Shown: positions 897 to 50,288 of the stretch, piece by piece
How positions within the stretch are numbered: the first letter of the stretch is position 1
Layout: each line of letters starts with the position of its first letter
Origin: an uncultured Ignavibacteriota bacterium
Lineage (GTDB): Bacteria > Bacteroidota > Ignavibacteria > Tepidaquicellales > Tepidaquicellaceae
NCBI GenBank assembly: GCA_937983305.1
Contig: CALKAJ010000030.1
Location: 20-64,019 of the forward strand
Reading direction: 5' to 3'
DNA: 64,000 nt
The notes under the pieces: generated by a model
What the model was told of the DNA's origin: nothing
Seen by the model: only the letters and a program-made list of their open reading frames with translations
The model's database searches: none
Made by a program: the position numbers and the translations under genes

Positions 897-933
897 AACT
901 TTTGTCAAGTTTATAAAGTTTATAAATTGAAAT

Positions 934-1371
934 TTACTTAATATTGTTTAATTTATTAATTCTTCTTTCGTGTCTCTCACCGCCTTCGAAATTTGTTGAT
1001 ATAAATATTTTAAAATATTTTAAAGCGGTTTCTTTGTTAATAAAATCGGAACCAAAACAAATTATTCTTGCATCGTTATGCTTCCTCGACATCTCAGCCA
1101 TATTTTCATTTGTTGCATTTACCGCTCTTGCACCTTTTACCTTGTTTGCCGCAATGCTTACGCCAATCCCGCTGCCGCATATTGCTATTCCGTAATCTGC
1201 TTTTCCGGAAACAACGCTTCCGGCTACGCTTTCCGCATAATCGGGATAGTCAACGCTTGCCTCTGAATCGGTTCCAAAATCAATAACAGTAAAACTTTCA
1301 GATTTTAATTCTTTTATTAATTCTTCTTTTAATCCGAATCCTCTGTGGTCTGAGCCAATTGAAATTATCAT
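934..1371 (-). CDS. rpiB: ribose-5-phosphate isomerase B (RpiB/LacA/LacB family)
   Basis: 145 aa. [37 protein letters not shown] and [15 protein letters not shown] match the RpiB family over the full length. Confidence 0.93.
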
Positions 1372-1383
1372 AATATTAAAAAT

Positions 1384-6159: not shown

Positions 6160-7503
6160 ATGAAAGAGAATATAAAAATACTTTTGGTTGACGATGAATC
6201 AAATTCAACCCAGATTCTCGGAAAAGTTCTGAGAAAAAAGGGCTATGAAGTTTTCGAGGAAAATAACAGTATTCAGGCAAAAGAACTAATCATACGAAAT
6301 TTTTATGATATAATAATATCAGATTTGCAAATGCCTAATGTATCAGGAATGGATTTGCTCGAAATCAAACCTGAAAGAAGTATATTTATTATGATAACAG
6401 GCTATGGCTCGGTAGTGTCAGCAGTAGAATCTATGAAAAAAGGAGCATTTGATTATGTTAATAAACCTTTCAATCTTGATGAGTTTATTGTAAAGGTTGA
6501 AAAAGCGGCTGAAAAAGTAGTGATGCAATCTGAGCTCAACAAATTGAAGGAAATAGTTGAAAACGAAAACAGCTTCTGCGGAATTATAGGAAAAAGTGAA
6601 AAAATGCTCGAAATTTTCGATTTATTGAGAAATGTTTCAAAAGTTAATATAAATTCCCTGATATACGGAGAAAGCGGAACAGGGAAAGAGTTGATAGCAA
6701 AGGCAATCCATAACTTAAGTGAACGCAGTTCGAAGCCTTTTGTAGCCGTAAACTGCAGTGCAATACCCGAAAACCTGCTGGAAAGTGAACTTTTTGGGCA
6801 CACGAAAGGAGCATTTACCGGAGCTATTGAATCACAAAAGGGGGTATTTGAACAGGCAAATGAAGGAACATTATTTTTAGATGAAATTGGAGAAATGCCG
6901 TTTAATCTTCAGGCAAAACTGCTAAGAGTTTTGGAAAATTTTGAGGTTAAACCGCTTGGAAGCGACAAAGTAAAAAAAATTGATATTAGATTAATATCTG
7001 CAACAAACCAAAACCTTGAAGAATTAACATCCGAGAAAAAATTCCGGGATGATTTATATTATCGAATAGCAACTGTAACAATTAATCTTCCGCCTTTAAG
7101 AGCAAGGCGTGGAGATATACCTTTAATAGCATATAATTACCTCAAAAAGCTTGCCATAAAATTTGGAAGTAAATATGAAATTACTGCGGAGGCGATGCAG
7201 GCAATAACTAATTATGAATGGAAAGGTAATGTTAGGGAGCTTGAAAATGTTCTTGATATGGCAGCTATAAAAAGTCCCTGTAAAATTATTGATGTGTCAT
7301 CTTTGCCGTTTCAAAGCGGAACTCAATTTAATACCGAAGTTGATATTTTAAATGAATCAAACTTTTGTACACTTATGGAGGTTGAAAAATCCTACATAAA
7401 ACGAATTCTTGCGGCTACAGAGGGGAACAAACAGAGAGCTGCTGAAATTTTAAAAATTGATAGAAAAACTCTTTATAAAAAGATAAAAGATTATAATTTG
7501 TAG
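6160..7503 (+). CDS. sigma-54-dependent response regulator (NtrC-family enhancer-binding protein)
   Basis: 447 aa. Receiver domain (LLVDDE, ISDLQMP, NKPF). AAA+ domain with Walker A GESGTGKE and the sigma-54 contact loop GAFTGA. C-terminal Fis-type HTH (NKQRAAEILKIDRKTLYKKIK). Confidence 0.93.
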   Translation: MKENIKILLVDDESNSTQILGKVLRKKGYEVFEENNSIQAKELIIRNFYDIIISDLQMPNVSGMDLLEIKPERSIFIMITGYGSVVSAVESMKKGAFDYVNKPFNLDEFIVKVEKAAEKVVMQSELNKLKEIVENENSFCGIIGKSEKMLEIFDLLRNVSKVNINSLIYGESGTGKELIAKAIHNLSERSSKPFVAVNCSAIPENLLESELFGHTKGAFTGAIESQKGVFEQANEGTLFLDEIGEMPFNLQAKLLRVLENFEVKPLGSDKVKKIDIRLISATNQNLEELTSEKKFRDDLYYRIATVTINLPPLRARRGDIPLIAYNYLKKLAIKFGSKYEITAEAMQAITNYEWKGNVRELENVLDMAAIKSPCKIIDVSSLPFQSGTQFNTEVDILNESNFCTLMEVEKSYIKRILAATEGNKQRAAEILKIDRKTLYKKIKDYNL

Positions 7504-7559: not shown

Positions 7560-7610
7560 TTAAACATTTATTTTTTATCAGTTTAAATTGACTATTAAAT
7601 CTTTCCCTTT

Positions 7611-7626
7611 TGGCACGATATTTGCT
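7611..7626 (+). promoter_or_regulatory. sigma-54 (-24/-12) promoter
   Basis: TGGCAC-GATAT-TTGCT is an exact match to the TGGCAC-N5-TTGCW consensus. It sits in the intergenic region directly downstream of a sigma-54 activator gene and upstream of a cytochrome operon. G/C-rich consensus positions are unlikely by chance in this AT-rich DNA. Confidence 0.8.
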
Positions 7627-7693
7627 GGGATTTTGTGTGAAGAAAATTTTAAAAATATTAGTTTTTAGTCTGAATCCTGAAATGTGTAAATTG

Positions 7694-8008
7694 ATGAAAA
7701 AGTTTTTTGCAAAGTTAAATTATAAATTTGACTGCGTGAAAATAGAAGTTGATTCGGATTGGAAAAATTTAATATTTGACGAGGAAATAGACTGCATTAT
7801 TCTCGATACCAACATAAACTCCGATATTCAAAGCGACATAAGAGAAAAATTCAATAAATCTTGTTTTTTTCTACTTCCCTCATTTTCAAGTGAAATTCAT
7901 TTGGATACTAATTCCGCTGATTTAATTTCAGAGCCGTTCAAATTCAGCGAATTAGAAAAGAACTTAAATGAACTATACGAATCTAAATCTGCTACGGATG
8001 CAAATTAA
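7694..8008 (+). CDS. small receiver-like (degenerate REC) protein; start uncertain (candidates GTG 7637, ATG 7682, ATG 7694)
   Basis: Residues IDCIILDTNINSD, FFLLPSF and ISEPFKFSELEKNL follow the CheY-fold pattern (beta3-Asp, beta4, K-P-F) but with Lys replaced by Glu. The in-frame upstream stretch KKILKILVFSLNPEMCKLMKKFF looks like beta1/alpha1 with the acidic pair replaced by SL. Confidence 0.5.
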   Translation: MKKFFAKLNYKFDCVKIEVDSDWKNLIFDEEIDCIILDTNINSDIQSDIREKFNKSCFFLLPSFSSEIHLDTNSADLISEPFKFSELEKNLNELYESKSATDAN

Positions 8009-9863
8009 TAAACTAATTGCAATATTATATTCATTTGTCGTATTAATTATTTTTGTTTCCGTTGTTACGTCTTCTGTTCCGGTTAAGGCAAAATATTCAG
8101 ATGACTGCCTTGTTTGTCACGAAGATAAGGACTTAACAATGGAAAAGAACGGGAAAAAGATATCGTTATATGTAAATCCATCAGTTTATAAAGCATCCGT
8201 CCACGGCGGCGCTGATTGCAAAGATTGTCACGTTGGTTATAATCCTGAAGAATTGCCGCATAATCCGAAAAGCTCAGGTGTGAATTGTAACGAATGTCAC
8301 GATATAAAAAAGAATCCTTCTTCGGCTCATAACAACGTAAAATGTTATACTTGTCACGGCGACCATAACGTTATTCCTGCAAAAGAATTTGCTAAATCAG
8401 ATAACTGTTTCACCTGTCATAATACAAAGAGCGTAAGTTCTTTTAAACAATCTGTTCATTTTAGAAAAAATATTTCCTGCGATAAATGTCATAAAAGCGG
8501 TCACGATGTTATAAAAATTTCAAAAAAAGAGTCAACAAGGCTTTGTGCTCAATGTCACAATAAAGCTTTTACTGAAGTTAATAACGGCGTACACAAGCAG
8601 TCATCGGGAAAAGGTAAGACACCAATTTGCGTTGATTGCCACGGTTATCACAGTATAAACACCAACAAACTTACCATAGAAACACAATCGTGTTATAAAT
8701 GCCATCTTAATGAGAAGTTGTTTCCCGGAAAAGAAAAGGGCTCAGCAGATTTTGTTGCGGAATATGAGAAAAGTGTACATAATTCTGTAAGAAAAAACGG
8801 AATACCTGCCGCTTCCTGTACGGATTGCCACGGAGACCATTTGATTAAGGGCTCAAAAGATCTTCAAACAAAAGACGGAATTCTTGAATCGTGTATAAGA
8901 TGCCACGAAAAAGCAGTAAAAGAGTTTAAGATGTCTAAACACGGAAACAATATTGAGAAGAGTCCGGGAAATCCGTTTGAATGTACAGATTGTCATGGAG
9001 AACATGGAATATTAGCAGTAAAGCTTGACACCAAACTTTCAAAGTTGATGCAAACTGATATGTGCCTTGAGTGCCATAAGGACAGTAAGTTTCAATCTAA
9101 ATACAAACCCGGAACGGAATTACATATTAATGATTATTTAAACAGCGCCCATTACAAAAAACTGAAAGAGGGCAACCCAAATGCCGCATCTTGTACAGAT
9201 TGTCACGGCTCACACTCAATGCTCAATGCACTTGACCCTAATTCTCCCGTAAGTCCAAAAAACATTTCTGCAACCTGCGGGCAGAATAATTGTCATATAA
9301 AAATCTATAACGAATATAAAGGTTCCATACACGATGTCTCAATTCAGACAAAAGAAAAATCAGATGCTCCAAGCTGCGTAAATTGTCACGGAAGTCACGG
9401 ATTGTTAAAAAAAGATGACCAAATGAATCCTTTGGCAAAACCAAACGGAGTTGTTCAGTTATGTGCTGATTGCCATTCTTCTGTCAGAATTATTGAAAAC
9501 AATAACCTGCCCAAAGGCATAGTATCCGATTTTAATAATAGTTTCCACGGACTCGCATTGCGTGGGGGCTCACAGGATGCAGCAGACTGTGGAAGCTGTC
9601 ACGGTGTTCATAATATACGTCCTTCTTCCGACCCATTATCAACCATACACGACGACAATCTGCCTCAAACCTGCGGCAGCTGCCATCCCGGTGCGACTCT
9701 TGCAACTTTCAAAACTCCGATTCATCTTGTGGAAACTGCAAAGGAAAATCCTTTACTTAAATGGATTGAGATTTTTTACATATTTTTAATAATAGCAACA
9801 ATTGGATTTATGGTGTTACATAATATTTTAGATTTAATAAAGAAATTAAGAACCAAACATTAA
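7998..9863 (+). CDS. membrane-anchored multihaem c-type cytochrome (18 CXXCH + 1 CX4CH)
   Basis: The ORF track gives 7968-9863; I prefer the ATG at 7998 (MQINKLIAILYSFVVLIIFVSVV, a signal or anchor). There are 19 haem motifs arranged as nine two-haem modules plus one extra. C-terminal TM helix WIEIFYIFLIIATIGFMVLHNIL followed by basic residues. Confidence 0.9.
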   Translation: MQINKLIAILYSFVVLIIFVSVVTSSVPVKAKYSDDCLVCHEDKDLTMEKNGKKISLYVNPSVYKASVHGGADCKDCHVGYNPEELPHNPKSSGVNCNECHDIKKNPSSAHNNVKCYTCHGDHNVIPAKEFAKSDNCFTCHNTKSVSSFKQSVHFRKNISCDKCHKSGHDVIKISKKESTRLCAQCHNKAFTEVNNGVHKQSSGKGKTPICVDCHGYHSINTNKLTIETQSCYKCHLNEKLFPGKEKGSADFVAEYEKSVHNSVRKNGIPAASCTDCHGDHLIKGSKDLQTKDGILESCIRCHEKAVKEFKMSKHGNNIEKSPGNPFECTDCHGEHGILAVKLDTKLSKLMQTDMCLECHKDSKFQSKYKPGTELHINDYLNSAHYKKLKEGNPNAASCTDCHGSHSMLNALDPNSPVSPKNISATCGQNNCHIKIYNEYKGSIHDVSIQTKEKSDAPSCVNCHGSHGLLKKDDQMNPLAKPNGVVQLCADCHSSVRIIENNNLPKGIVSDFNNSFHGLALRGGSQDAADCGSCHGVHNIRPSSDPLSTIHDDNLPQTCGSCHPGATLATFKTPIHLVETAKENPLLKWIEIFYIFLIIATIGFMVLHNILDLIKKLRTKH

Positions 9864-10561
9864 TGAAACCTTCTTCCGGCAAAAAATATTTAAGAATGTC
9901 TTTAAACGAAAGAATACAACATATACTTTTGTTAACTACATTCATTACATTGGTGATAACCGGTTTTGGACTGCTATATCCCGAAGCATTTTGGGTGAAA
10001 TGGATAGTTGCAATTGTCGGAAAAAACGCATTCGAAGCGAGAGGAGTTGTTCACAGAATAGCAGCAGTAATTATGGTGTTTGCTTCTGTTTATCATATTT
10101 TCTATATCATTTTTACGAAGAGAGGAAGAAGATTCGTATTTGATATGTGGTTCAATCTACAGGATATTAAGGATATGTTTCTGTATTTAAAATATCTTAT
10201 AGGTCTGTCAAAAGATAAACCAAAATTCGGCAGATTTAGCTACATAGAGAAAATGGAATATTGGGCAGTTATATGGGGCACTGTTGTTATGGGTGCCACA
10301 GGTGCAGTGCTTTGGTTTGAAAACGAATTTCTACCGATAATCGGTATGGAAGGAATGTATATCGCAACGGCAATACATTTGTACGAAGCCGTACTCGCTT
10401 CATTATCTATTCTTGTATGGCATTTTTATTTCATATTTATAAATCCCGATGTTTTTCCGATGAATAAGGCATGGATGACCGGTTTTCTGACACGCGAACA
10501 AATGGAACACGAACATCCGCTGGAACTCGAGCAGATTGAATCAAGTAATACTAATGAATAA
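9863..10561 (+). CDS. dihaem cytochrome b, FdnI/HydC (Ni/Fe-hydrogenase b-type cytochrome) family
   Basis: 232 aa. The start overlaps the upstream stop (TAATG). N-terminal LNERIQHILLL plus four predicted TM helices with conserved His (VVHRIAAV, SVYHIF, ATAIHLYEA, VWHFYF), typical of quinone-interacting b subunits. Confidence 0.85.
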   Translation: MKPSSGKKYLRMSLNERIQHILLLTTFITLVITGFGLLYPEAFWVKWIVAIVGKNAFEARGVVHRIAAVIMVFASVYHIFYIIFTKRGRRFVFDMWFNLQDIKDMFLYLKYLIGLSKDKPKFGRFSYIEKMEYWAVIWGTVVMGATGAVLWFENEFLPIIGMEGMYIATAIHLYEAVLASLSILVWHFYFIFINPDVFPMNKAWMTGFLTREQMEHEHPLELEQIESSNTNE

Positions 10562-10633
10562 TTGAATAATACACGTGAATATAAAAATAAATATATCTTA
10601 TTTTCCATTAACTAACTTAATTAATTAACTCCT

Positions 10634-11191
10634 ATGAAGGGCAAAAAAACTTTTCTAACGCTCACTGTTGTTGCGGCAATTGTTCTTTCTTTTTCTGCAT
10701 TTAATTTCCATCAAGGTGTGGGACAATTTAAGTACATTGGCGTAACAAAATGTGTAAGCGCCTGTCACAAATCAGACGCACAAGGCAAGCAGCTTGATAT
10801 TTGGAAAAATTCCAAACATTCAATGGCATATAAAACGCTTGAAACTCCCGAAGCAGATAAAATTGCTCAGGAAAAAGGCTTTCAAACGAAAGCCGCCGAA
10901 ACACCGAACTGTTTAAAGTGTCACGTTCTTGGTAAAGATATGGACCCGTCAGAATTTACTGAAAACTTTGATATGAAAGACGGTGTTCAGTGTGAAAGTT
11001 GTCACGGACCCGGTTCTGAATATAAGTCAATGTCAATTATGAAAGACAAACAAAAATCAATTGAAAACGGACTTATTGTGCATTCAGAAAAGGAAGCTTT
11101 TTGTACTAACTGTCATAATTCTGAAAGCCCAACTTTCAAAGGTTTTGAATATGACAAGATGTGGGATGCGATTAAACATCCTAAACCGTAA
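10634..11191 (+). CDS. periplasmic tetrahaem cytochrome, cytochrome c554-like
   Basis: 185 aa. Signal peptide. Haem motifs CVSACH (CX3CH), CLKCH, CESCH, CTNCH. The CESCHGPGSEY context resembles the c554-type multihaem family. Confidence 0.8.
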   Translation: MKGKKTFLTLTVVAAIVLSFSAFNFHQGVGQFKYIGVTKCVSACHKSDAQGKQLDIWKNSKHSMAYKTLETPEADKIAQEKGFQTKAAETPNCLKCHVLGKDMDPSEFTENFDMKDGVQCESCHGPGSEYKSMSIMKDKQKSIENGLIVHSEKEAFCTNCHNSESPTFKGFEYDKMWDAIKHPKP

Positions 11192-11219
11192 TTTTTTTTG
11201 ATGTAATTTATAAGTTACC

Positions 11220-11262
11220 CCCGTCCCTGTTAAACAGGGACGGGTTAGAATTTAATTTTTTT
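11220..11262 (+). terminator. intrinsic terminator
   Basis: Perfect 10-bp GC-rich stem CCCGTCCCTG / CAGGGACGGG with a TTAAA loop (11220-11244). A T7 run lies at 11256-11262, not immediately adjacent. Confidence 0.65.
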
Positions 11263-11283
11263 AAAAAAACCGAATTAAATGTG

Positions 11284-12585
11284 ATGAGAAAAATTATCTA
11301 CTTTTTTATTCCTCTTTTTGCGATTCTCTTCATTACTACCGGTTTATATTCTCAAACTGTTAATGCAAGATTCAGTACTTCGTTTTATACCTGGGAAAGG
11401 TATGATTCAATTGGCTCTGAATCTTCCACTAAACATTTAAGAGCATATCAGAATATTCTGCTTGATGTATCGCAGAAAAAATGGTCTTTTAACACAAATG
11501 CTCAGCTGGAAGGGGATATAATGGAAAAATCCGGAAGAGGATTTGCCTACAGATTTTACAGTCTGTATATCAAAGGTTCAAATCTGTTTGATGTAATGGA
11601 TGTTAAACTCGGAAGGCAATATGTTTCTGCAGGTGTTGGCAGGGGATATATTGACGGTGCACATCTGAAATTAAAACTCGGAAAAAGCAAAGAATATCAG
11701 TTAACTGCTTATGGAGGCGGACTTTCTCCGCTCTCGTATGATTTTGATTATGGAGAAAAATATCAGTTAAAAGATAACATCTCTTATGGAGCAATGTTCC
11801 AGTATTATGGCGTTAAAGATTTAATGCTTGGCGTCAGCTACTATAACAAACACAGAGCTGTTCCGAATTACTATGCTCCAAGACTTGACAGCGCCCTGTT
11901 TACAAAAATTGTTGAAATACAAACAGAACCCTTTGCCGACCAGCTCGCAGGTTTTGATTTTTCATTTTTCAAACCTTCTTATCAGGCAATGGGAAAGGTC
12001 TATTATGACGTTAACCTGAAAAAACTATTCAGAGCGGATGTCAATGCAGGTTTTAATGTTGCCCAAAATCTTCGTTTAAATGTAGGATTTTTGTATCGCG
12101 AACCTCAAATAAGTTACAATACGATTTTCTGGGTTTTTCAGCATAAGCCTCTTTCCGAATTTGAAGCAGGCTTAGATTACACTCTTCTGAAACAATACAA
12201 TATATATTTTAAGGTTTCAGATGTAATGTATGATAACGATAATTCAGCAAAATTCTCATTTGGATTTTCACATGCGAATTACGGATTATCTTTCGTTAAA
12301 TATACGGGATATGCAGGTGAATCCGACGGTGCATTTGGTTATTTTAATTATGAACTTCTCAGGTCGAAACTCGCTGTTACAACCGGTCTTAATTATTCCA
12401 ATTACAGTATTAAAAATTATTCCGAAGATAAAGTAAGTGCGTTTTCAGGAATGCTCGGATTGGTTTACAGACCTGTTAATCATTTCACCGTTGATTTACA
12501 GGGACAGATTATTACTAACAAAATTTATAAGACCGATACAAGAATATTACTTGGTTTTAACTATTGGTTATTTAAGAAATTTTAA
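11284..12585 (+). CDS. outer-membrane beta-barrel (porin-like) protein
   Basis: About 433 aa. Signal peptide MRKIIYFFIPLFAILFITTGLYSQ. Amphipathic beta-strand pattern throughout. C-terminal ...GFNYWLFKKF ends in Phe, as in BAM substrates. Sits between cytochrome genes. Confidence 0.75.
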   Translation: MRKIIYFFIPLFAILFITTGLYSQTVNARFSTSFYTWERYDSIGSESSTKHLRAYQNILLDVSQKKWSFNTNAQLEGDIMEKSGRGFAYRFYSLYIKGSNLFDVMDVKLGRQYVSAGVGRGYIDGAHLKLKLGKSKEYQLTAYGGGLSPLSYDFDYGEKYQLKDNISYGAMFQYYGVKDLMLGVSYYNKHRAVPNYYAPRLDSALFTKIVEIQTEPFADQLAGFDFSFFKPSYQAMGKVYYDVNLKKLFRADVNAGFNVAQNLRLNVGFLYREPQISYNTIFWVFQHKPLSEFEAGLDYTLLKQYNIYFKVSDVMYDNDNSAKFSFGFSHANYGLSFVKYTGYAGESDGAFGYFNYELLRSKLAVTTGLNYSNYSIKNYSEDKVSAFSGMLGLVYRPVNHFTVDLQGQIITNKIYKTDTRILLGFNYWLFKKF

Positions 12586-12596
12586 AATTCAACATT

Positions 12597-13865
12597 ATGA
12601 GAATTATGAAATTTTACGCTTTGCTTTTTGTCTGTTTAGCTTTTTTCGTTTCGATAACTGCTTATAATTTTTATTCCGGCGGTTCCGTTACTTCAAAAGG
12701 AATTTTTACAAAACAGGTGAAAGCAAACGATAATCCTGATAACAGGACAATTATCAAATTCAATCACTCAAAACACCTCAAAGATGCAGGTACTCAATGC
12801 ACTGATTGTCATAGTAAGGCGCCAAATTCTGTTAATGCACTCGAGAGCCTGATTCCCATAAAGGCTTCCTGTGCGAACTGCCATGATGTTGAAGATAAGA
12901 AAGAATGTGGACTTTGCCATTTTGAGGGAGTTTATAAAAAACTTAATCCGACTGTCAGAGAGTTACATTTTAATCATCAAAAACATATCAAGGACAGCGG
13001 AATGCAATGCCTCGATTGCCACAAAAATATGCCGGATTATAAATATTCGAGTGACAATCCTCAAAAATATCCTGAAATGGAAGTATGTGCAAAATGTCAT
13101 AACGATAATGATGCCACGATGAGCTGCGAAAAATGTCATACTAATCTGACTAATCTGAAACCGATGAATCATCTCAGGTCAAACTTTCTCAATGAGCACA
13201 AATGGGTATTTGATGCGGCAGGCGAAAAAAATAATTGTATGATGTGCCACTCAGAAAATTTCTGTCAGGTTTGTCATAGCGCCGGAAAATTCAAAGGGTC
13301 TAACACAAAGAAGGATTTTTATGCTCCGTTCTGGACAAAAAATTCAGGTACAAGAATTGATAGAGCAGAATTGCAGAAACTTAATACCGTTCACGAATTG
13401 AATTATCTATATACACACGGTATGGATGCATTGCATAAATCCTATGAATGTAAAACCTGTCACGACCCGGTCGAGTTCTGTTCTGCTTGTCATCAAACCG
13501 GCGGAAATCTTGTAACAGGCTTTGCACCTAAGAGCCATCTTGCACCTAACTTCAAAACTTTTGGCGTTGGAACAGGCGGCGGATTACATGCTGAGCTTGC
13601 AAGGAAAGATATTGAAGCCTGTCAATCTTGCCACGATGTAAACGGCGGTGACCAGATATGTATTAAATGCCATTTTGATAACGATGGTGTAAAAGGCACA
13701 AATCCCCGAACTCACGAATGGGGCTTTATGAAAGATGAAAAAGGAATCTGGCACGATACACAAGGAGCAATTTGCTTTAGATGTCATACCGATGCAAACG
13801 CAAGACCAAACGGAATTGCCGGAATAGGTTTCTGTGGTTATTGCCATAGTAAAGCAGTTAAATAA
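12597..13865 (+). CDS. periplasmic multihaem c-type cytochrome (14 CXXCH)
   Basis: 422 aa. Signal peptide and 14 CXXCH. Two N-terminal units FNH-x-KH...CxDCH...CxxCH...CxxCH resemble cytochrome c7/c3 trihaem domains. These are followed by closely paired CXXCH motifs. Confidence 0.9.
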   Translation: MRIMKFYALLFVCLAFFVSITAYNFYSGGSVTSKGIFTKQVKANDNPDNRTIIKFNHSKHLKDAGTQCTDCHSKAPNSVNALESLIPIKASCANCHDVEDKKECGLCHFEGVYKKLNPTVRELHFNHQKHIKDSGMQCLDCHKNMPDYKYSSDNPQKYPEMEVCAKCHNDNDATMSCEKCHTNLTNLKPMNHLRSNFLNEHKWVFDAAGEKNNCMMCHSENFCQVCHSAGKFKGSNTKKDFYAPFWTKNSGTRIDRAELQKLNTVHELNYLYTHGMDALHKSYECKTCHDPVEFCSACHQTGGNLVTGFAPKSHLAPNFKTFGVGTGGGLHAELARKDIEACQSCHDVNGGDQICIKCHFDNDGVKGTNPRTHEWGFMKDEKGIWHDTQGAICFRCHTDANARPNGIAGIGFCGYCHSKAVK

Positions 13866-13897
13866 AAAATAACAGTAAATTGAATATTAAGTTTAAT

Positions 13898-14770
13898 ATG
13901 AAAAAACATAATCTTTTATATCTTCTTCTGATACCTGCATTTATAATGATAATAACATTATATAGCTGCAGTAAACTTGAAGATAATCTGGTTAATGCTC
14001 CCAAAGCAGGTATTCACCCTGACGGCTGGACTAATCCCATTAATGCAAATTTTCACGGGAAATATTTTTTCTCCAACAAATGGGATTTTAAAATGTGTAC
14101 ACAGTGTCACGGTGCTGATTACAACGGAGGCAACACAGGTAAGAGTTGTAATGACCCCTCCTGTCACGGCAGTTCAACCCCCGAAGATTGCAAACTTTGT
14201 CATGGTAACAGAAGCAATACAATTTTCCCGCCGTTAGCATTAAATGGTTCGTCTTCCGTAACGTATATTGGGGTTGGTACCCATAACACTCATTTGAATA
14301 GAGATAGTTCAATCAGATTCTCGGCAAGACTGAGGTGTGTTTCCTGTCATAAGTCAATTTCAGGCTTTTTTGATCCGAACCACATCGGCTCAAATCCTGA
14401 TAACATTGCTGAGGTAGTATTTGATTCTCTTGCCATTACAACTACAAATGGAATTACTCCAAATCCGGTTTGGAACAGGAATAACCCGCAATCCTGCGCA
14501 GTTACTTATTGTCACGGTAATTTCAAAAACGGAAATTACAGGCTGAATCCGACCACAATGACAAATCCCGTTTGGACAGATCCTAATTCGGTATATTGCG
14601 GCACCTGCCACGGTAATCCGAGTACAGGAAATCCGCTACCGGGCGGAACCCATATTCAGGGCTTTACAATTTATAATTGCTATTTTTGTCACGGCTCGGT
14701 TATTAATAATGCCGGAAATATTATTAATAAATCCAAACATATTAACGGCGTAGTTAATATGAACCAATAA
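13898..14770 (+). CDS. lipoprotein multihaem cytochrome with CX4CH...CXXCH motifs (5 CXXCH + 2 CX4CH)
   Basis: The ORF track start is 13880 (TTG); an ATG at 13898 gives MKKHNLLYLLLIPAFIMIITLYSC with a lipobox Cys. Motifs CTQCH, CNDPSCH, CKLCH, CVSCH, CAVTYCH, CGTCH, CYFCH. The SCAVTYCHG...YCGTCHG...CYFCHG pattern matches the Geobacter CxxxxCH...CXXCH domain family. Confidence 0.85.
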   Translation: MKKHNLLYLLLIPAFIMIITLYSCSKLEDNLVNAPKAGIHPDGWTNPINANFHGKYFFSNKWDFKMCTQCHGADYNGGNTGKSCNDPSCHGSSTPEDCKLCHGNRSNTIFPPLALNGSSSVTYIGVGTHNTHLNRDSSIRFSARLRCVSCHKSISGFFDPNHIGSNPDNIAEVVFDSLAITTTNGITPNPVWNRNNPQSCAVTYCHGNFKNGNYRLNPTTMTNPVWTDPNSVYCGTCHGNPSTGNPLPGGTHIQGFTIYNCYFCHGSVINNAGNIINKSKHINGVVNMNQ

Positions 14771-14800
14771 GTTATATCGTTTAAAATCAGTTTCAAAGTT

Positions 14801-14838
14801 AAAAAGACCGTCAATTCACCGGCGGTCTTTTTATTTTT
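14801..14838 (+). terminator. intrinsic terminator
   Basis: AAAAAGACCG ... CGGTCTTTTT stem with a 13-nt loop, followed by a TTATTTTT tail, 30 bp after the stop codon. Confidence 0.7.
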
Positions 14839-14868
14839 ATAAATTGTGTGAAAAAGCAAAAAATCAAA

Positions 14869-14885
14869 TGTGGGATTTCTCCACA
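14869..14885. promoter_or_regulatory. palindromic UAS-like motif, copy C (TGTGG-GATTTCT-CCACA)
   Basis: 5-bp inverted arms TGTGG/CCACA. 13 of 18 positions match copy A. Centred about 89 bp upstream of the -24-like element at 14965. Confidence 0.35.
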
Positions 14886-14964: not shown

Positions 14965-14980
14965 TGGCACAGAATTTGAT
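14965..14980 (+). promoter_or_regulatory. candidate sigma-54 promoter (one mismatch in the -12 element)
   Basis: TGGCAC-AGAAT-TTGAT, about 48 bp upstream of the ATG at 15028. Caveat: a perfect TATAAT hexamer (14982-14987) follows directly, so a sigma-70-type promoter is an alternative. Confidence 0.5.
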
Positions 14981-15027: not shown

Positions 15028-16422
15028 ATGAAAAGATATTTTACGTTTTTATTAGTTGTTTCTTTTATCTTCGTTTCTGAGTCCGTTTTTTCGCAATCAA
15101 CAAGTTTCCATATGCTTAGAAAAGGTCACTCTTACTTTTATGCATCGACAAATGGTGGTTTTGAAACCATTTCAAACATCCCGATTAACGCACTTCGCTG
15201 CTTGAAATGTCACCCCGGTAAACTGGCTAATAATACCCCGGTTGACACAGGCACTTATGCGCCTTCCTGTTTAGATTGCCATAATTTTTCAATTGGGAAT
15301 GCTGTACCGGATACCATTTGCTTAAGATGCCACAGCAGACAAAAGGTCGAAAAGGCAAACTTTACGGATAAACACAGATCTGCCGGTATGACCTGCGTAA
15401 CCTGTCATATCAAGGACGAACTGCATGCCGATGCAACAAATTATCAAACCCCGTTTGATACTGTACAGGGTAAGACTTGTTCAACTGTAGGATGTCATAA
15501 CGTCGTTCCTGTAACTCCCGATGATTCACTGGCTCACGCAATTCACAACGACAAGCTCGAATGTTCTTCCTGCCATGCGAGGTCTCAAATAGCCTGCTAT
15601 AACTGCCACTTCGAAACAGAAGTTTGGCAGGGGATGAGAGGCTTCAAAAGACCGATTGGTCAATATAAAGGCTTCATAATGCTGGCAAGACTACCAAAAA
15701 CCGGAAAAGTTGGAATTGTAAATTACCAATCCATCATTTATCAGGGAAATAAAACGTTTAACGCATGGGGTCCTTATTATCCGCATACAATTATGCCGAA
15801 GGACTCGACAAGAAGTTGCAGCGGATGCCACAATGCTCCAACAATTCAGGAATACAATAACACAACAAAAATTGTTGTAGCAAAATGGGATTCCACTCTG
15901 ACTCCTAAGAAGATTGTTCATACTCAGGGAATGATTCCGATTCCTCCTGATTATCTGACTTCATTGGTTTTTGATTTTGCAAACTATATCGGAAAAGTTG
16001 ATACTGCATATACAGACCCGTCGAAATGGGTATATGCAAAGACCGGCTTAACCGGAAATCAAATGCTATCTCAATATGTATTGCCGTTGACCGCTGCTCA
16101 AATGACTGCTCTTGGTTCAACAATTGGTATTACACCTATCAGCACTGAAGTACCAAGTAATTTTGAGCTGTTCCAGAACTTCCCGAATCCATTCAACCCG
16201 AGTACGATTATCAAATTTAACATTGCCAAATCTGCAAATGTAACGGTAAATGTTTATAATTCACTTGGAAAGCTTGTTACAACTTTGGTTTCTCAGAAGT
16301 TAAATGCAGGCACATATCAGGTTGATTTTGAAGGAAAAGAACTTTCAAGCGGTATCTATTTCTATTCAATGATAGTTGACGGAAATGTCTCCGCAGCTAA
16401 AAAGATGCTTTTGGTAAAGTAA
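15028..16422 (+). CDS. multihaem c-type cytochrome (7 CXXCH + 1 CX4CH) with a C-terminal T9SS sorting domain
   Basis: 464 aa. Signal peptide. Motifs CLKCH, CLDCH, CLRCH, CVTCH, CSTVGCH, CSSCH, CYNCH, CSGCH. The last ~80 aa, FELFQNFPNPFNPSTIIKFNI...VYNSLGKLV...GTYQVDFEGKELSSGIYFYSM...KKMLLVK, form a classic Por/T9SS type A C-terminal domain. Confidence 0.9.
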   Translation: MKRYFTFLLVVSFIFVSESVFSQSTSFHMLRKGHSYFYASTNGGFETISNIPINALRCLKCHPGKLANNTPVDTGTYAPSCLDCHNFSIGNAVPDTICLRCHSRQKVEKANFTDKHRSAGMTCVTCHIKDELHADATNYQTPFDTVQGKTCSTVGCHNVVPVTPDDSLAHAIHNDKLECSSCHARSQIACYNCHFETEVWQGMRGFKRPIGQYKGFIMLARLPKTGKVGIVNYQSIIYQGNKTFNAWGPYYPHTIMPKDSTRSCSGCHNAPTIQEYNNTTKIVVAKWDSTLTPKKIVHTQGMIPIPPDYLTSLVFDFANYIGKVDTAYTDPSKWVYAKTGLTGNQMLSQYVLPLTAAQMTALGSTIGITPISTEVPSNFELFQNFPNPFNPSTIIKFNIAKSANVTVNVYNSLGKLVTTLVSQKLNAGTYQVDFEGKELSSGIYFYSMIVDGNVSAAKKMLLVK

Positions 16423-16448: not shown

Positions 16449-16485
16449 AAAACCGGTCCCGGATTTATTCCGGAACCGGTTTTAA
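16449..16485 (+). terminator. intrinsic terminator
   Basis: AAAACCGGTCCCGGA / TCCGGAACCGGTTTT stem (14 of 15 bp) with a TTTAT loop and a T-tail. Confidence 0.8.
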
Positions 16486-16637
16486 TTATATGAAGTCTTT
16501 CAATAGAATTAAATAACCGTCTTTTTTGTTTAAAATACAAAATAAGAGATTCAAAAAATCTTTTTATAATAATTAAATATCTTTGCAAAAAAAATTAAAT
16601 TAAGTATATTTAATCCAATTAAAAAATAAATATTTAG

Positions 16638-17147: not shown

Positions 17148-17807
17148 TTGAATATTGTTTATAAATCGGCGGTTTTTATTATAATAACAGGCGTGTTACT
17201 GGCAGCTTTCTTAGTGCCAATTCCAAATATTCCTGCACTTGGAGAGAAGGCAAGAATTTTATTCCTCCACGTGCCTACTGCCTGGCTAAGTGTTGTTGCT
17301 TTTTTAATTTCAATGATATACTCAGTTATTTATCTCAGGAAAAGAGATATTTATGCTGATGTAAAAGCTTTCGCTTCGGCAGAAATTGGTTTTTTGTTTT
17401 GCATTCTTGCAACTGTAACGGGCTCTGTATGGGCAAAATTCAGCTGGGGTTCTTTCTGGAACTGGGACCCGAGAGAGACATCAATTTTTATTTTACTTCT
17501 TATTTACGGAGCGTATTTTTCATTAAGGTCTGCAATTGATAATCCTGAGCAGAAAGCAAAACTTGCTTCGGTATATTCCATTATTGCTTTTATAACTGTG
17601 CCGTTTTTTATTTTTATTATGCCGAGACTTGTAGAAACTTTACATCCTGATCCTATTATAAACGACAGAGGTAAGATAAATATGTCCCCGAATATGCAGA
17701 TAATATTTTTTAGCTCATTGACCGGGTTTACTCTGCTCTTTTTCTGGATGTTAAATGTTAAAGTACGGCTTGAGAATTTAAGAATTAAAAAATTAAACGT
17801 TAATTAA
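17148..17807 (+). CDS. ccmC: cytochrome c maturation (System I) haem exporter protein CcmC
   Basis: 219 aa. WGSFWNWDPRET is the WWD haem-handling motif. Polytopic membrane protein. Only a TTG start is possible because an in-frame TAA lies at 17136. Confidence 0.9.
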   Translation: MNIVYKSAVFIIITGVLLAAFLVPIPNIPALGEKARILFLHVPTAWLSVVAFLISMIYSVIYLRKRDIYADVKAFASAEIGFLFCILATVTGSVWAKFSWGSFWNWDPRETSIFILLLIYGAYFSLRSAIDNPEQKAKLASVYSIIAFITVPFFIFIMPRLVETLHPDPIINDRGKINMSPNMQIIFFSSLTGFTLLFFWMLNVKVRLENLRIKKLNVN

Positions 17808-17818
17808 AAAATAAATTT

Positions 17819-17932
17819 ATGAGCGATATATATGTAGTTTTAACTATAGCATTGATAATCTGGTTTGGATTGTTTGTCTATCTGTTTATGATTGACAGGA
17901 GAGTTAAAAAACTTGAAGAAGAAAATAAATAA
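17819..17932 (+). CDS. ccmD: CcmD-like small membrane protein (37 aa), absent from the ORF track
   Basis: ATG at 17819. MSDIYVVLTIALIIWFGLFVYLFMIDRRVKKLEEENK* has one TM helix followed by a basic/acidic tail. It lies exactly between ccmC and ccmE, where ccmD normally sits. Confidence 0.6.
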   Translation: MSDIYVVLTIALIIWFGLFVYLFMIDRRVKKLEEENK

Positions 17933-17938
17933 AATTTT

Positions 17939-18325
17939 ATGAATAACAGAATTAAATTAATTATTGGAGTTGTCATTGTTTCAGTTTTTGTATCTATTGG
18001 TTTTTTCAAATTTATGGATACAAAAATAGAATATGTGAATTTCCGGGAGGCAACCGCAAAATCAAAAGTTGTGGAAGTTAAAGGCGTATGGCTGAAAGAC
18101 AAAGAAACAAAATTTGACCCGGGAACAAGTACATTCGAATTCTATATGAGAGATGATTATAACACCGAGATGAAAGTCATTTATCCCGGAGGTAAACCAA
18201 ATAACTTTGAAGTTGCAGACGCAATTGTTGTAAAAGGTCAGGTTAAAAACGGTTCCTTCCATGCAAAAGATATTCTGACAAAATGTCCGTCCAAATACGA
18301 AGGCAACGGACAGGATGTAAAATAA
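17939..18325 (+). CDS. ccmE: haem chaperone CcmE, Cys-variant (CXXXY)
   Basis: 128 aa. N-terminal anchor and OB-fold-like body. AKDILTKCPSKYEG aligns with E. coli AKEVLAKHDENYTP, so the haem-binding His is replaced by Cys116 (TGT at 18284-18286). Confidence 0.88.
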   Translation: MNNRIKLIIGVVIVSVFVSIGFFKFMDTKIEYVNFREATAKSKVVEVKGVWLKDKETKFDPGTSTFEFYMRDDYNTEMKVIYPGGKPNNFEVADAIVVKGQVKNGSFHAKDILTKCPSKYEGNGQDVK

Positions 18326-18352
18326 TTTCTCACCAAAAATTTAAATCTTATT

Positions 18353-20638
18353 ATGATAGGAAAAATTCTCATTTACATAACATTAGCTGCAAGTTTTGTT
18401 TCCATTGTAAGCTATGCTTTAACTTATTTCAGAAAAAGCAATCTGAAGAAAATATCAAGATTATTTTTTCATATAACCGTAATCAGTGTTCTCTTTGCTT
18501 CCGCATATTTACTCAGCCTGATTCTGTCTCATCAGTTCCAGTATTCCTACGTTTGGGAATATAGCAGCCGCTCTCTTGGAACTCCTTTGCTGATATCTAC
18601 TTTTTTCGCAGGGCAGGAAGGCAGTTTTTTGCTTTGGGCTTTGTTTGCATCAATTATAGGAATATTTCTGATTAACAGTGTTTCTAAGAATTCTGATTTT
18701 GAAGCACCCGTTATGATGATATATACACTGGTGATTGCATTTCTCGCAGTCCTTCTGATTCTCAAATCGCCATTCACTACGATATGGGAAGCATTCCCCG
18801 GACAGGTTCAGGAAAATTATATGCCCGAAGACGGTAGAGGTCTAAACCCGATTTTACAGAATTTCTGGATGGTTATACACCCCCCGATTTTATTTGTTGG
18901 TTTTGCTTCTCTTGCCGTTCCATTTGCATTTGCACTTGCAACTTTATTCAACAAAAAATACAACGAATGGGTTGTCTATGTAATGCCCTGGATGTTGTTT
19001 GCATCTGCTACACTTGGATTGGGTATAATACTCGGCGGTTATTGGTCTTATGGTGTGCTTGGCTGGGGCGGTTATTGGGCTTGGGACCCGGTCGAAAATT
19101 CTTCGTTGATTCCCTGGCTTGTTTCGATTGCGGCTTTGCATACTCTGATAGGTCAAAAAGCTACCGAAGGTTATAAAAAGACAAATATCATTTTATCAAT
19201 TATTGCTTATCTTCTCGTTCTTTATTCTACCTTTCTCACAAGAAGCGGAATACTTCAGGATTCTTCAGTTCACTCTTTTGTAAAACCGGGAATGGAAGTT
19301 TATATCGCTCTTGTTCTGTTTATTTCATCATTCATTATAATTTCTGTAATTGCACTTGCTGTCAGATATAAGTCTCTTAGTGAGGTAGCTAAAAAAGATA
19401 CGAAAGTTAATATTCTTTCAAGGGAAGCAATTTTATATATCGGTTCTTTAATTATTCTCGCATCCGGTGCCATCATAATTGCAGGTACAAGTTTACCGAT
19501 ATTTTCAAAGAGTACTGTTGATATAAGTTTTTACAATCAGATGAATATGCCAATTGCCATCGTAATGCTTGTATTTGCCGCAATAGCATTCTTTCTCGAT
19601 TGGAGAACAACAGATACTAAAAAGTTCTTCAATAAGCTGATTACACCCGCTGCGCTCGCTCTCGTTACAACTGTTATAATTTCAATATTTGCAATAAATG
19701 AAATAGTCTATATTATTTTCACATTTGCAATATTTTTTGCCTTCTTCTCGGGGATTGTAAAACTCGGGAATGTTTTTAAAGCAAAGAAAATAACTTTTGG
19801 AGCTGCCATTGCCCATATCGGACTTGCACTTTTCTTTCTCGGAATTATTGCTTCTTCGAAATACAGCGAAGAAGTAAGGATACCTTTGGAAATGGGAAAA
19901 CCATCGGAGGCGTTTGGATACGCATTTACTTACAAGGGAGCTGAACCTTTCAGCGACCCTGAGAATCCTAATGACGAGAAATATTATTTCAACGTATTGA
20001 TGGAAAAAGATAATAAGGAGATGGTTCTCAAACCTGTTATGTATTTCAGCAGTTTCAACGAAGGTGTGATGAAGAATCCCTATGTAGCAAGTTTTATAAC
20101 AAAGGATATTTATCTTTCTCCTATTGAGTTAATTGCTCCACAGACGTATGATCCTAAAGATGAGCACGTTGTCGGGCAGAACGAAGAAAAAGAAATCAAT
20201 GGAGTTAAAATCAAATTTATTGATTTTGACCTGAGTCAGGCACCAATGGGTAATAAAACAGAAGCGAGTGACTACTCAATTTTTGCGAATATAAACGCAA
20301 CTTATAACGGGAAAACACTTCCCGTAAAACTTGAATTGAAATATATTGGCGGCTCGCCTGAAGCAACGGAAATAAAACTGCCACAGGACGAGAAAATTTC
20401 ATTGATGTTTACAGGTATGAATGTTAAAAACGAGCAAAACCCCGTTTCTTCCGCTAAGATTGTTGTCCTTGACGAAGAGAAGAAATCTAAATTTAAAAAG
20501 CAGGATGAGATTATGCTTGTAAGCGTTTCAATAAAACCCTACATTGGGGTATTATGGCTTGGCTCGTTTATAATGATTTTTGGATTCTTCTATTCAATTA
20601 TTAAAAGAGTCAAGGATTTGAAAAAAAATAAAAGTTAG
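18353..20638 (+). CDS. ccmF: cytochrome c haem lyase subunit CcmF
   Basis: 761 aa polytopic protein. WGGYWAWDPVENSSLIPW is the WWD motif. Includes a long periplasmic CcmF C-terminal region and a final TM helix. Confidence 0.93.
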   Translation: MIGKILIYITLAASFVSIVSYALTYFRKSNLKKISRLFFHITVISVLFASAYLLSLILSHQFQYSYVWEYSSRSLGTPLLISTFFAGQEGSFLLWALFASIIGIFLINSVSKNSDFEAPVMMIYTLVIAFLAVLLILKSPFTTIWEAFPGQVQENYMPEDGRGLNPILQNFWMVIHPPILFVGFASLAVPFAFALATLFNKKYNEWVVYVMPWMLFASATLGLGIILGGYWSYGVLGWGGYWAWDPVENSSLIPWLVSIAALHTLIGQKATEGYKKTNIILSIIAYLLVLYSTFLTRSGILQDSSVHSFVKPGMEVYIALVLFISSFIIISVIALAVRYKSLSEVAKKDTKVNILSREAILYIGSLIILASGAIIIAGTSLPIFSKSTVDISFYNQMNMPIAIVMLVFAAIAFFLDWRTTDTKKFFNKLITPAALALVTTVIISIFAINEIVYIIFTFAIFFAFFSGIVKLGNVFKAKKITFGAAIAHIGLALFFLGIIASSKYSEEVRIPLEMGKPSEAFGYAFTYKGAEPFSDPENPNDEKYYFNVLMEKDNKEMVLKPVMYFSSFNEGVMKNPYVASFITKDIYLSPIELIAPQTYDPKDEHVVGQNEEKEINGVKIKFIDFDLSQAPMGNKTEASDYSIFANINATYNGKTLPVKLELKYIGGSPEATEIKLPQDEKISLMFTGMNVKNEQNPVSSAKIVVLDEEKKSKFKKQDEIMLVSVSIKPYIGVLWLGSFIMIFGFFYSIIKRVKDLKKNKS

Positions 20639-21644: not shown

Positions 21645-21680
21645 TTTTTATTAATCAAGGAAATATAAAGAATTTAGAAA

Positions 21681-22715: not shown

Positions 22716-22722
22716 AAATAAT

Positions 22723-25285: not shown

Positions 25286-26221
25286 ATGAAAAAATTACTA
25301 CTTCTTTTCTTTTTCCTTTCTCTGCCGGTTTTAGCTTTTTCTCAATATTACACAGAGAGTTTCGAACCTTATGATTCAATCACTCATCCGCCTGATTGGA
25401 AAGTTGTAAATAATGCAGGATTCCCCATAAATGAATTTGCTAATTGGTGTATCAGAGATACAGGCAGAATTCTTCCTAATATTACTCCATATCCCCCCAC
25501 AGGCGGGCCAAAACTTTCAAGGGCTTATGACGGTATTAAAGCCTATAATGTAACCTGGGGTGCAGGAATTCCTTTAGATACTAACAGTTCAACCGTAAGC
25601 GATGCGTGGTTAATTTCAAAAAAATTCAATAACATTCCCTCAGATGCATTTTTCTCATTTTACGCTTGTGGCGGTTCTGCAAGTTTTCTCGATAGTTTGC
25701 AGATTTTGGTAAGTCCTACTGGCGATACAGCTTTGTCAAGCTTTACGAATAAAATCCAGACAATAATCTGGACTCCTCCCGTAACCTATGGTGAATTCCA
25801 GAATTATACATACGATTTTTCTCAGTTTGCCGGGCTTAATATTAGGGTGGCATTCAGGTATTATATGGAGACTTCCCAAATGGGATATGTAGTTATGTTA
25901 GACTATGTTCAGATGTTTGGTTCAGTAGGTATTAAACCCATAAATTCCAATATTCCTGATAAATTTGCATTAAAGCAAAATTTCCCAAATCCATTTAACC
26001 CTCAAACTACTATCAGATTTGACCTTGCAAAAAGCACTAATGTCAGACTTGATGTTTATAATTCATTGGGACAAGTTGTCCAAACCCTTCAAGACGGGTT
26101 TAAACCTGCAGGCTACTATGAAGCTACTTTTAATGCATCATCTTTGTCAAGCGGCATCTATTTCTATAAACTGACAACCGACCAGTTTACAGAAACTAAA
26201 AAGATGATGGTTATAAAATAG
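25286..26221 (+). CDS. secreted protein with a T9SS C-terminal sorting domain (N-terminal choice-of-anchor-J-like domain, tentative)
   Basis: 311 aa. Signal peptide. C-terminal FALKQNFPNPFNPQTTIRFDL...VYNSLGQVV...SSGIYFYKL...KKMMVIK. Confidence 0.75.
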   Translation: MKKLLLLFFFLSLPVLAFSQYYTESFEPYDSITHPPDWKVVNNAGFPINEFANWCIRDTGRILPNITPYPPTGGPKLSRAYDGIKAYNVTWGAGIPLDTNSSTVSDAWLISKKFNNIPSDAFFSFYACGGSASFLDSLQILVSPTGDTALSSFTNKIQTIIWTPPVTYGEFQNYTYDFSQFAGLNIRVAFRYYMETSQMGYVVMLDYVQMFGSVGIKPINSNIPDKFALKQNFPNPFNPQTTIRFDLAKSTNVRLDVYNSLGQVVQTLQDGFKPAGYYEATFNASSLSSGIYFYKLTTDQFTETKKMMVIK

Positions 26222-50285: not shown

Positions 50286-50288
50286 AGA

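Follow-up and report, generated by a model that had tools for sequence, protein, structure and literature searches.

A candidate route for an octahaem cytochrome through the type IX secretion system in an uncultured Ignavibacteriota bacterium

Most of the mechanistic understanding of extracellular electron transfer comes from Shewanella and Geobacter, in which the outer cytochromes are lipoproteins or are otherwise secreted. Anodes, iron-rich sediments and wastewater reactors often harbour Ignavibacteria and Bacteroidota. We analysed a stretch of 64,000 nucleotides (hereafter the window) from an uncultured Ignavibacteriota bacterium (assembly GCA_937983305.1, contig CALKAJ010000030.1), which contains a gene for an octahaem c-type cytochrome that ends in a C-terminal sorting domain (CTD) for a type IX secretion system (T9SS). 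On balance, and with somewhat better than even confidence, we favour the reading that this protein is a holo-cytochrome matured by the cytochrome c maturation (Ccm) system and exported by the T9SS, and that it forms the outermost part of a sigma-54-controlled electron conduit.

MtrC and OmcA of the Shewanella MtrCAB system resemble the octahaem protein in being Ccm-matured multihaem cytochromes with haem-rich and beta-rich parts, and they form the outer layer of a conduit, where our protein would also lie. However, they have 10 haems rather than eight and are lipoproteins that depend on type II secretion, whereas the octahaem protein combines a type I signal peptide with a T9SS CTD and lacks a lipobox. 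The protein does not belong to the MtrC/OmcA family, since PF22113 gave 14.2 bits against a cut-off of 30, TIGR03507 did not match, and Foldseek reached none of MtrC, OmcA or the nanowire cytochromes with either the full model or the module model. Its nearest functional analogues are nevertheless these proteins and the outer lipoprotein cytochromes of Geobacter-type conduits, to which it does not belong either. The Geobacter cytochromes PgcA, OmcZ, OmcS and OmcE are also extracellular multihaem proteins that extend electron transfer past the outer membrane, but by other export routes, and they were absent among the PDB sequence matches with E<=1 and from the Foldseek lists. In the Gram-positive proteins OmhA (Carboxydothermus ferrireducens) and OcwA (Thermincola potens), an anchoring device fused to a multihaem module secures a place on the cell surface, an arrangement comparable to that of the lipoprotein relatives described below; the similarity to our protein was limited to a weak motif-level match (6qvm, E 0.0025).

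The classical type A cargo proteins of the T9SS (RgpB, ChiA, RemA and the haem-binding HBP35 of Porphyromonas gingivalis) share with the octahaem protein a Sec signal and the TIGR04183/PF18962 beta-sandwich. To our knowledge, the known T9SS cargo consists of hydrolases, adhesins and similar proteins, none with covalently bound haems, and none was found in the literature searched either.

The octahaem protein and its sorting domain

The gene and the parts of its product are as follows.

15028..16422, + strand: octahaem c-type cytochrome with a T9SS type A C-terminal sorting domain, 464 amino acids (aa), stop codon included
15028..15093, + strand: type I signal peptide, aa 1-22, MKRYFTFLLVVSFIFVSESVFS (translation read by inspection)
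15097..16152, + strand: octahaem module, aa 24-375 (motifs, alignment and AlphaFold2 model)
16180..16419, + strand: T9SS type A C-terminal sorting domain, aa 385-464, with the motifs NFPNPFNPSTIIKF, GIYFYSM and KKMLLVK (hidden Markov models (HMMs), Foldseek and comparison with other CTDs)

The translation contains eight haem sites, namely seven CXXCH motifs (Cys at positions 58, 81, 98, 123, 179, 190 and 264) and one CX4CH motif, CSTVGCH at position 151, where many relatives have CXXCH. A preliminary description of this DNA had counted eight haem-attachment motifs, a number that is reached if the CX4CH motif is counted, CXXCH alone giving seven. All 16 Cys residues lie inside haem motifs, and the protein combines several such motifs with the presence of a haem-attachment system encoded nearby (the ccm genes listed below), as is characteristic of multihaem c-type cytochromes. 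The number of non-motif His residues is also eight, and the protein therefore probably has only bis-His haems, which would make it an all-bis-His electron carrier.

The N-terminal part of the module (aa 58-194) is haem-rich, with seven haem sites, and consists mostly of helix and coil in the model. The second part (aa ~205-372) is beta-rich and holds the eighth site, CSGCH at 264. The module modelled alone (aa 24-375) reached a predicted local distance difference test score (pLDDT) of 88.7 and a predicted template modelling score of 0.88, and the full-length model had a pLDDT of 87.2. Foldseek of the module model against the PDB gave no match with E<1, Foldseek being weak on haem-free multihaem models, and matches of the full-length model in the PDB were confined to the CTD. 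No Pfam or NCBIfam family exceeded its cut-off over the module except for short stretches of cytochrome c7/c3 type, such as a Cytochrome_C7 match over aa 54-103 (30.9 bits, cut-off 24.8). Membership of the NrfB or DmsE (MtrA-like) families was not indicated, with PF22678 (NrfB-like) at 23.4 bits (cut-off 27), TIGR03146 at 14.4 (cut-off 166.6) and TIGR03508 at 29.2 (cut-off 192). A sequence profile search of the PDB found NrfB (7e-10), Otr (2e-9), MtrA (3e-8), MtrF (1e-6) and OmcA (5e-5), all at the level of haem motifs only.

Cleavage of the signal peptide was read by inspection as falling between MKRYFTFLLVVSFIFVSESVFS and QSTS, giving the protein the Sec signal of a T9SS cargo and placing Gln at +1. 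This fits the 'Q-rule', a pattern reported for Bacteroidetes and Ignavibacterium album (PMC5837995).

At the other end of the protein, the CTD scored 39.3 bits with PF18962 (Por_Secre_tail; gathering cut-off 27), aligning aa 385-460 of 464 to model positions 2-73 of 75, and 36.6 bits with TIGR04183 (cut-off 23). The preliminary description had placed a signal peptide and a T9SS CTD in this one open reading frame (ORF), and had proposed a Por secretion-tail HMM as a check of the latter. Inspection bears out the signal peptide, and the CTD is confirmed by its predicted fold and by passing the curated cut-offs of both models. It was modelled as an immunoglobulin (Ig)-like beta-sandwich with six strands over aa 392-462 (AlphaFold2, pLDDT about 90), and Foldseek matched it to the CTD of PorU (6za2, E 1e-4) and, within the SprA translocon, to that of RemA (8gl6_D and 8gl8_D). 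The octahaem protein thus has the sequence and the fold of a T9SS type A cargo. Its CTD is 44-52% identical to those of three other proteins encoded in the window, all identified by HMM and by CTD comparison.

25286..26221, + strand: T9SS type A CTD protein with a choice-of-anchor J domain
29545..31800, + strand: T9SS type A CTD protein, esterase / S9 peptidase-like
42154..44130, - strand: T9SS type A CTD protein

These observations bear on whether the protein might instead be a periplasmic cytochrome, in which the C-terminal Ig-like domain would be a structural or binding domain or a relic rather than a working secretion signal. The weak match of FlgD_ig to the domain (23.2 bits) would fit such a protein, as would the failure to see T9SS machinery in the window (see below). 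However, FlgD_ig and the type B model CHU_C both stayed under their cut-offs, whereas both type A models passed. The domain lies at the extreme C-terminus and has all the signature motifs, nearly invariant across more than 100 orthologues; four such CTDs occur within 64 kb on unrelated proteins, and other phyla have the module without the domain. We therefore regard a purely periplasmic protein as very improbable.

Occurrence of the module with and without the sorting domain

Searching 5.8 billion proteins, we found over 100 full-length relatives (about 460 aa long, 33-80% identity), all with eight haem sites and, with few exceptions, with the CTD. Assemblies with orthologues include GCA_964400285.1, GCA_049966155.1 and GCA_034505895.1. 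The label that NCBI gives to the named relatives is only 'T9SS type A sorting domain-containing protein'. Named members with the CTD come from Ignavibacteria, Bacteroidetes, KSB1, Calditrichia/Calditrichaceae and Kryptoniota, all of which belong to the Fibrobacteres-Chlorobi-Bacteroidetes (FCB) group. In an alignment of 50 sequences, every haem Cys and His was invariant and the CTD motifs nearly so; H28, R31, Y38, H133, H173, R208, H253, D316 and W334 were also invariant. An N-terminal motif, S-x-H-x-x-R-x-G-K...Y, is invariant or nearly so in the family.

We also searched with the module alone, lacking the CTD, against 1.84 billion cluster representatives (50% identity). At E<=1e-3 this search gave 350 clusters, of which 130 reached E<=1e-30. 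The CTD was present at the end of only 19 of the 146 best cluster representatives; most of the 146 stop where the module does, at a conserved PLTxxQMxxL motif. Tandem copies of the module, two or three in number (16 or 24 haem sites), occur both with and without the CTD; examples are P0121 (1150 aa), P0122 (978 aa), P0018, P0021 and P0024-P0026 (about 800 aa), and the proteins of loci L140, L141 and L108.

Named members lacking the CTD were found in Phycisphaerae, Armatimonadia, Gemmatimonadota and 'bacterium HR10'. Many CTD-less members start with a lipoprotein signal (for example VWGC, LAGC or LTAC), and in many of these lipoproteins a long Asp/Asn-, Pro/Thr- or Gly-rich linker precedes the module. 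Such lipoproteins include P0135, P0137, P0140, P0145, P0155, P0160, P0175 and P0184 among others, some of them from unnamed lineages, and when read by eye some appear to have an Ig/FN3-type segment before the module. A single conserved redox module thus appears to have been joined to different export or anchoring devices by phylum, the T9SS tag being the device of the FCB lineages. The existence of these alternatives argues that the CTD is functional and that placement of the module in the envelope or beyond matters.

For gene context, a profile of the full-length alignment was unsuitable for scanning genome contigs, since the CTD peptide PNPFNPxTxI dominated the scan and the 80 loci obtained were of unrelated T9SS cargo. 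The CTD-less alignment was used instead on metagenome contigs and yielded 80 loci, which were considered together with exact look-ups. The module was present in 86 loci, in 48 with the CTD and in 38 without it.

Probable sigma-54 control and the neighbouring candidate conduit genes

The genes and sites surrounding the octahaem gene are listed in order along the window.

6160..7503, + strand: NtrC-type response regulator / sigma-54 enhancer-binding protein (family scan)
7611..7626, + strand: sigma-54 promoter-like site TGGCACGATATTTGCT, right after the activator gene and ahead of the cytochrome/porin operon
7968-9863, + strand: 19-haem membrane-anchored cytochrome of a putative inner-membrane quinol-oxidising module (family scan)
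9863-10561, + strand: FdnI-like cytochrome b of the same putative quinol-oxidising module, 7968..10561 (family scan)
10634..11191, + strand: cytochrome c554-like tetrahaem protein with a signal peptide, putative periplasmic carrier
11281..12585, + strand: 434-aa beta-barrel-like outer-membrane protein, candidate conduit porin (signal peptide, C-terminal ...WLFKKF)
12597..13865, + strand: 14-haem cytochrome, candidate periplasm-facing or porin-inserted partner
13880..14770, + strand: 7-haem lipoprotein cytochrome with lipobox LYSC and a CxxxxCH/CxxCH domain (TIGR01904, 54.1 bits, cut-off 27)
14800..14843, + strand: terminator-like hairpin that ends the upstream cytochrome operon, 13-bp stem and T-run (-18.7 kcal/mol, z = -6.9)
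14869..14885, + strand: inverted repeat TGTGGGATTTCTCCACA, candidate enhancer site for the sigma-54 activator, with the next promoter about 90 nt downstream
14965..14979, + strand: sigma-54 (-24/-12) promoter-like site TGGCACAGAATTTGA, 63 nt before the ATG of the octahaem gene
16449..16487, + strand: terminator-like hairpin after the stop codon of the octahaem gene (-22.3 kcal/mol, z = -4.9)
17148..20638, + strand: cytochrome c maturation genes ccmC (17148-17807), ccmE (17939-18325) and ccmF (18353-20638)

The pattern TGGCAC-N5-TTG matched the 64-kb window at two places, against 0.26 expected, and these are the two promoter-like sites given above. TGGCACAGAATTTGA is close to the consensus (TGGCAC-N5-TTGC) with TTGA in place of TTGC as its -12 element, and the octahaem gene is predicted to be sigma-54-dependent. 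We considered whether it could be the last gene of the upstream operon and rejected this, since a strong terminator hairpin and the gene's own promoter lie between. With a hairpin on each side and a promoter of its own, the gene is monocistronic here.

A promoter of the form TGGYAY-N5-TTG is kept at the same distance in close orthologues (L081/L082, L084, L085, L089, L092-L094, L096 and L098), and GTGGA...TCCAC elements similar to the inverted repeat TGTGGGATTTCTCCACA also occur in L081 and L084. In distant orthologues, sites of the type TGGCAA-N5-TTGC stand ahead of a small conserved ORF resembling a tetratricopeptide repeat (TPR) protein, which precedes the cytochrome gene. At least 12 distant loci have a homologue of the activator (38-44% identity) next to the cytochrome gene. 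The octahaem gene and the conduit cluster probably belong to the same sigma-54 regulon, and the two sites together with the nearby NtrC-type activator suggest a sigma-54 regulon for extracellular electron transfer.

Upstream of sigma-54 promoters, at a distance of about 60-100 nt, inverted repeats were also seen elsewhere, including L146, L155, L141 and L088. Distant loci have repeats of the type GAAACA-N4-TGTTTC as against TGTGGGATTTCTCCACA here, which may represent activator sites that differ between clades. The TPR-like protein of about 150-158 aa (MSEMLGNQYF...) lies directly before the cytochrome gene in distant CTD-bearing clades (L088 9504-9980, L141 8410-8871, L165 9456-9932, L170 9561-10004 and others), and has no obvious counterpart in front of the octahaem gene of the window. 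After the first sigma-54 promoter, an ORF of 104 aa (7694-8008, + strand) resembles a degenerate receiver domain (IDCIILD..., EPFKFSEL) and has no Pfam/NCBIfam match; a longer ORF that starts at TTG (7610-8008) runs across the promoter and is unlikely to be real.

The genes at 7968-14770 have the layout of a candidate porin-cytochrome conduit with its own quinol-oxidising module. Cytochromes and a lipobox are present in the segment 10634-14770, and the barrel candidate has a signal peptide and a C-terminal Phe, its last residues being of a type common to outer-membrane barrels, and was matched by no Pfam or NCBIfam HMM. Porin-cytochrome clusters have been reported in Ignavibacterium album and Melioribacter roseus (PMC7399161). 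As a candidate conduit, the cluster follows the logic of the Geobacter ombB-omaB-omcB type, in which a porin-like protein is combined with one multihaem cytochrome in the periplasm and one outer lipoprotein cytochrome that has a CxxxxCH/CxxCH domain. It differs in that the Geobacter clusters as described have no T9SS-tagged octahaem protein, which is an extra component here, and in the lack of an HMM match for its porin-like protein.

The arrangement recurs. Loci L140, L141 and L165 are syntenic, with cytochrome b, the c554-like protein, the porin, the 14-haem cytochrome, the lipoprotein cytochrome, the activator and a homologue of the octahaem protein; this homologue is only 39% identical to ours, and two of the three are 16-haem double modules. 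In a fourth locus, L170 from a KSB1 bacterium, a 430-aa protein with no Pfam match occupies the position of the porin-like gene; the locus also contains the TPR ORF and genes for a PAS-sigma-54 activator, two multihaem cytochromes and a family member with 16 haems. Much closer to the window, L089 encodes a protein 91% identical to the octahaem cytochrome and has the same upstream lipoprotein cytochrome (85% identical); this 2.4-kb contig ends inside the cytochrome gene, and its CTD can therefore not be seen. Linkage to a conduit thus recurs across a large evolutionary distance, yet it is not universal, as discussed in the next section.

L170 (GCA_034505895.1) also encodes, at 1-2059 (+ strand), a second multihaem cytochrome, unrelated to the family member there, that has a T9SS CTD (934 aa, truncated at the locus end), and T9SS-tagged cytochromes are therefore not limited to the family described here. 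In the window, a gene for a small lipoprotein lies downstream of the octahaem gene along with the ccm genes, and the ccm genes are followed directly by genes for the beta and alpha subunits of an electron-transfer flavoprotein and a long acyl-CoA dehydrogenase (20760-24444). Farther away, a gene pair (34031-40029, - strand) encodes an AddB-like nuclease of 936 aa together with a RecB/AddA-like helicase of 1063 aa, and a xanthine-dehydrogenase-like molybdoenzyme cluster (46616-53548; xdhA-, xdhB- and xdhC-like) is split by a large hybrid histidine kinase (50289-52784).

Proposed export, location and role of the octahaem cytochrome

As we picture T9SS export, transcription of the gene would start at a sigma-54 promoter of its own, with the NtrC-type activator at 6160-7503 as the probable driver, and jointly with the adjacent cluster. 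The product would be exported by Sec and cut by signal peptidase I before Gln23. Ccm attaches haem in the periplasm, and the system to which the ccmC, ccmE and ccmF genes just downstream belong would join the eight haems covalently as the module folds. Folded CTD-bearing proteins leave the periplasm through the SprA/PorV translocon of the T9SS, and PorU removes the CTD; the system would here recognise the C-terminal beta-sandwich, carry the folded holo-protein across the outer membrane and remove the domain. Once outside, either anchored or released, the cytochrome would carry the conduit's electron path further, with electrons passing to or from redox partners that are insoluble or extracellular. 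We infer the haem loading, the export, the surface location and the role in electron transfer from sequence. Type A cargo is anchored in Porphyromonas and is often released elsewhere (Flavobacterium ChiA and similar proteins), so covalent anchoring of the octahaem cytochrome is not a given. The preliminary description had likewise proposed T9SS export of a holo-cytochrome with display on the cell surface; we regard this as partly supported, all that computation could probe being in agreement with it.

Several findings weigh against this picture, and they concern the secretion system, the neighbourhood of the gene and the haem ligands. We know of no c-type cytochrome that has been shown experimentally to pass a T9SS. 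No component of the T9SS core (SprA, PorV, PorU, PorZ, GldK-N) was found in the 64-kb window, the larger ORFs of which were scanned with Pfam/NCBIfam, and SprA, PorU and PorV were not among five long ORFs from loci of Ignavibacteria and Bacteroidetes. Searches of full-text literature, subscription-only titles excluded, found no paper linking the T9SS to multihaem cytochromes or to extracellular electron transfer, and for Ignavibacteriota a 2024 review says only that the system 'may also be present' (PMC11285876). That statement and the four type A CTD proteins of the window do, indirectly, favour the presence of such machinery in the genome. An ORF of the window with a weak FadL/TodX match (1384-2640, - strand; a 418-aa outer-membrane protein) was considered as PorV and rejected, as it instead fits the BamG family model, at 243.5 bits just below the cut-off of 250.

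With respect to the neighbourhood, the adjacent cluster already has an outer lipoprotein cytochrome of its own (13880-14770). Most orthologous loci with enough flanking sequence have the cytochrome gene in a position not beside a conduit, and we accordingly rejected conduit linkage as a universal property. For example, the gene is solitary among housekeeping or unrelated genes in L081, L084 and L087, and lies beside TerC in L085 and L086. In these last two loci, which are otherwise different, both a TerC-family membrane protein and a DDAH-like enzyme adjoin the gene (L085 11507-12424, L086 12151-13815). A CTD-less clade of about 370-393 aa is often found in other cytochrome-rich clusters (L114, L121, L126 and L159). 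The preliminary description had connected the octahaem protein to the neighbouring conduit as its possible terminal reductase. The connection itself gains from the shared type of sigma-54 promoter and from the recurrence of the arrangement in L140, L141, L165 and L170; the part of terminal reductase fits less well, given the lipoprotein cytochrome of the cluster, and our protein is better seen as an extra outer layer.

The same gene arrangements bring in the possibility that the protein is secreted by the T9SS and then released, acting after removal of the CTD as a soluble or matrix-bound electron carrier that is independent of any one conduit, for which PgcA and OmcZ of Geobacter would be comparable cases. 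A monocistronic gene, unlinked to a conduit in most loci, would suit such a carrier, as would the release of many type A cargo proteins outside Porphyromonas, and the tandem 16- and 24-haem versions would be appropriate for long-range transfer. On the other hand, the CTD-less homologues of other phyla are lipid-anchored, which points to a cell-attached role, and in four distant loci the gene is again syntenic with porin-cytochrome clusters. Release as a free carrier is in our judgement unlikely, while still the strongest of the alternatives.

The haem ligands are less uniform in the family than the count of His in our protein would suggest. Among 219 single-module relatives, non-motif His is invariant at five positions. 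Position 34 (nt 15127-15129), which is His in the octahaem protein of the window, has Lys in 69% of these relatives, Met in 17% and His in 6%, and position 170 is His in 74%, Tyr in 12% and Asn in 4%. Haem ligation may therefore differ between members, some of which could have a catalytic site, and the variation at position 34 suggests an axial-ligand switch at one haem across the family.

These features would also suit an extracellular or surface redox enzyme, as opposed to a pure electron carrier, acting on a soluble oxyanion, a metalloid or a reactive species at a haem with an unusual or open axial position. Lys, Met and His at position 34 are all possible axial ligands, and only five invariant non-motif His serve eight haems; the conserved N-terminal motif, the weak sequence similarity to octahaem tetrathionate reductase (1sp3) and NrfB, the TerC neighbour in two loci and a weak ExtM match are in line with an enzyme as well. 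The similarities to enzymes are, however, confined to haem-motif stretches and lie far under the family cut-offs, the protein of the window has exactly eight non-motif His, and the genes that recur beside it are those of a porin-cytochrome conduit and of a sigma-54 activator, not enzyme accessory genes. An enzymatic role thus seems to us improbable.

Taken together, the comparison with described systems suggests that the octahaem protein is of a known kind, an outer multihaem cytochrome of a conduit, and that the proposed export route, the probable dedicated sigma-54 control and the uncharacterised fold are what is new here. A wider proposal, on which our confidence is evenly divided, is that the T9SS is a general route by which FCB bacteria (Ignavibacteriota, Bacteroidota, KSB1, Calditrichota and Kryptoniota) place fully haem-loaded multihaem cytochromes, with 8 and, in the tandem versions, up to 24 covalently bound haems, in the outer layer of sigma-54-regulated conduits. 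If this were true, it would constitute a previously undescribed secretion route for respiratory proteins that bear cofactors, one that replaces the type II secretion/lipoprotein route of the Proteobacteria and uses a module with no solved structural relative. The known range of T9SS cargo would then widen to folded proteins with many covalent cofactors. The module combined with TIGR04183 provides a simple marker for genomic surveys, and the activator and its promoter offer a regulatory handle for finding inducing conditions. A T9SS-tagged octahaem family, together with a conduit and a sigma-54 activator, gives a testable answer to how cytochromes may be placed outside the cells of Ignavibacteria and Bacteroidota.

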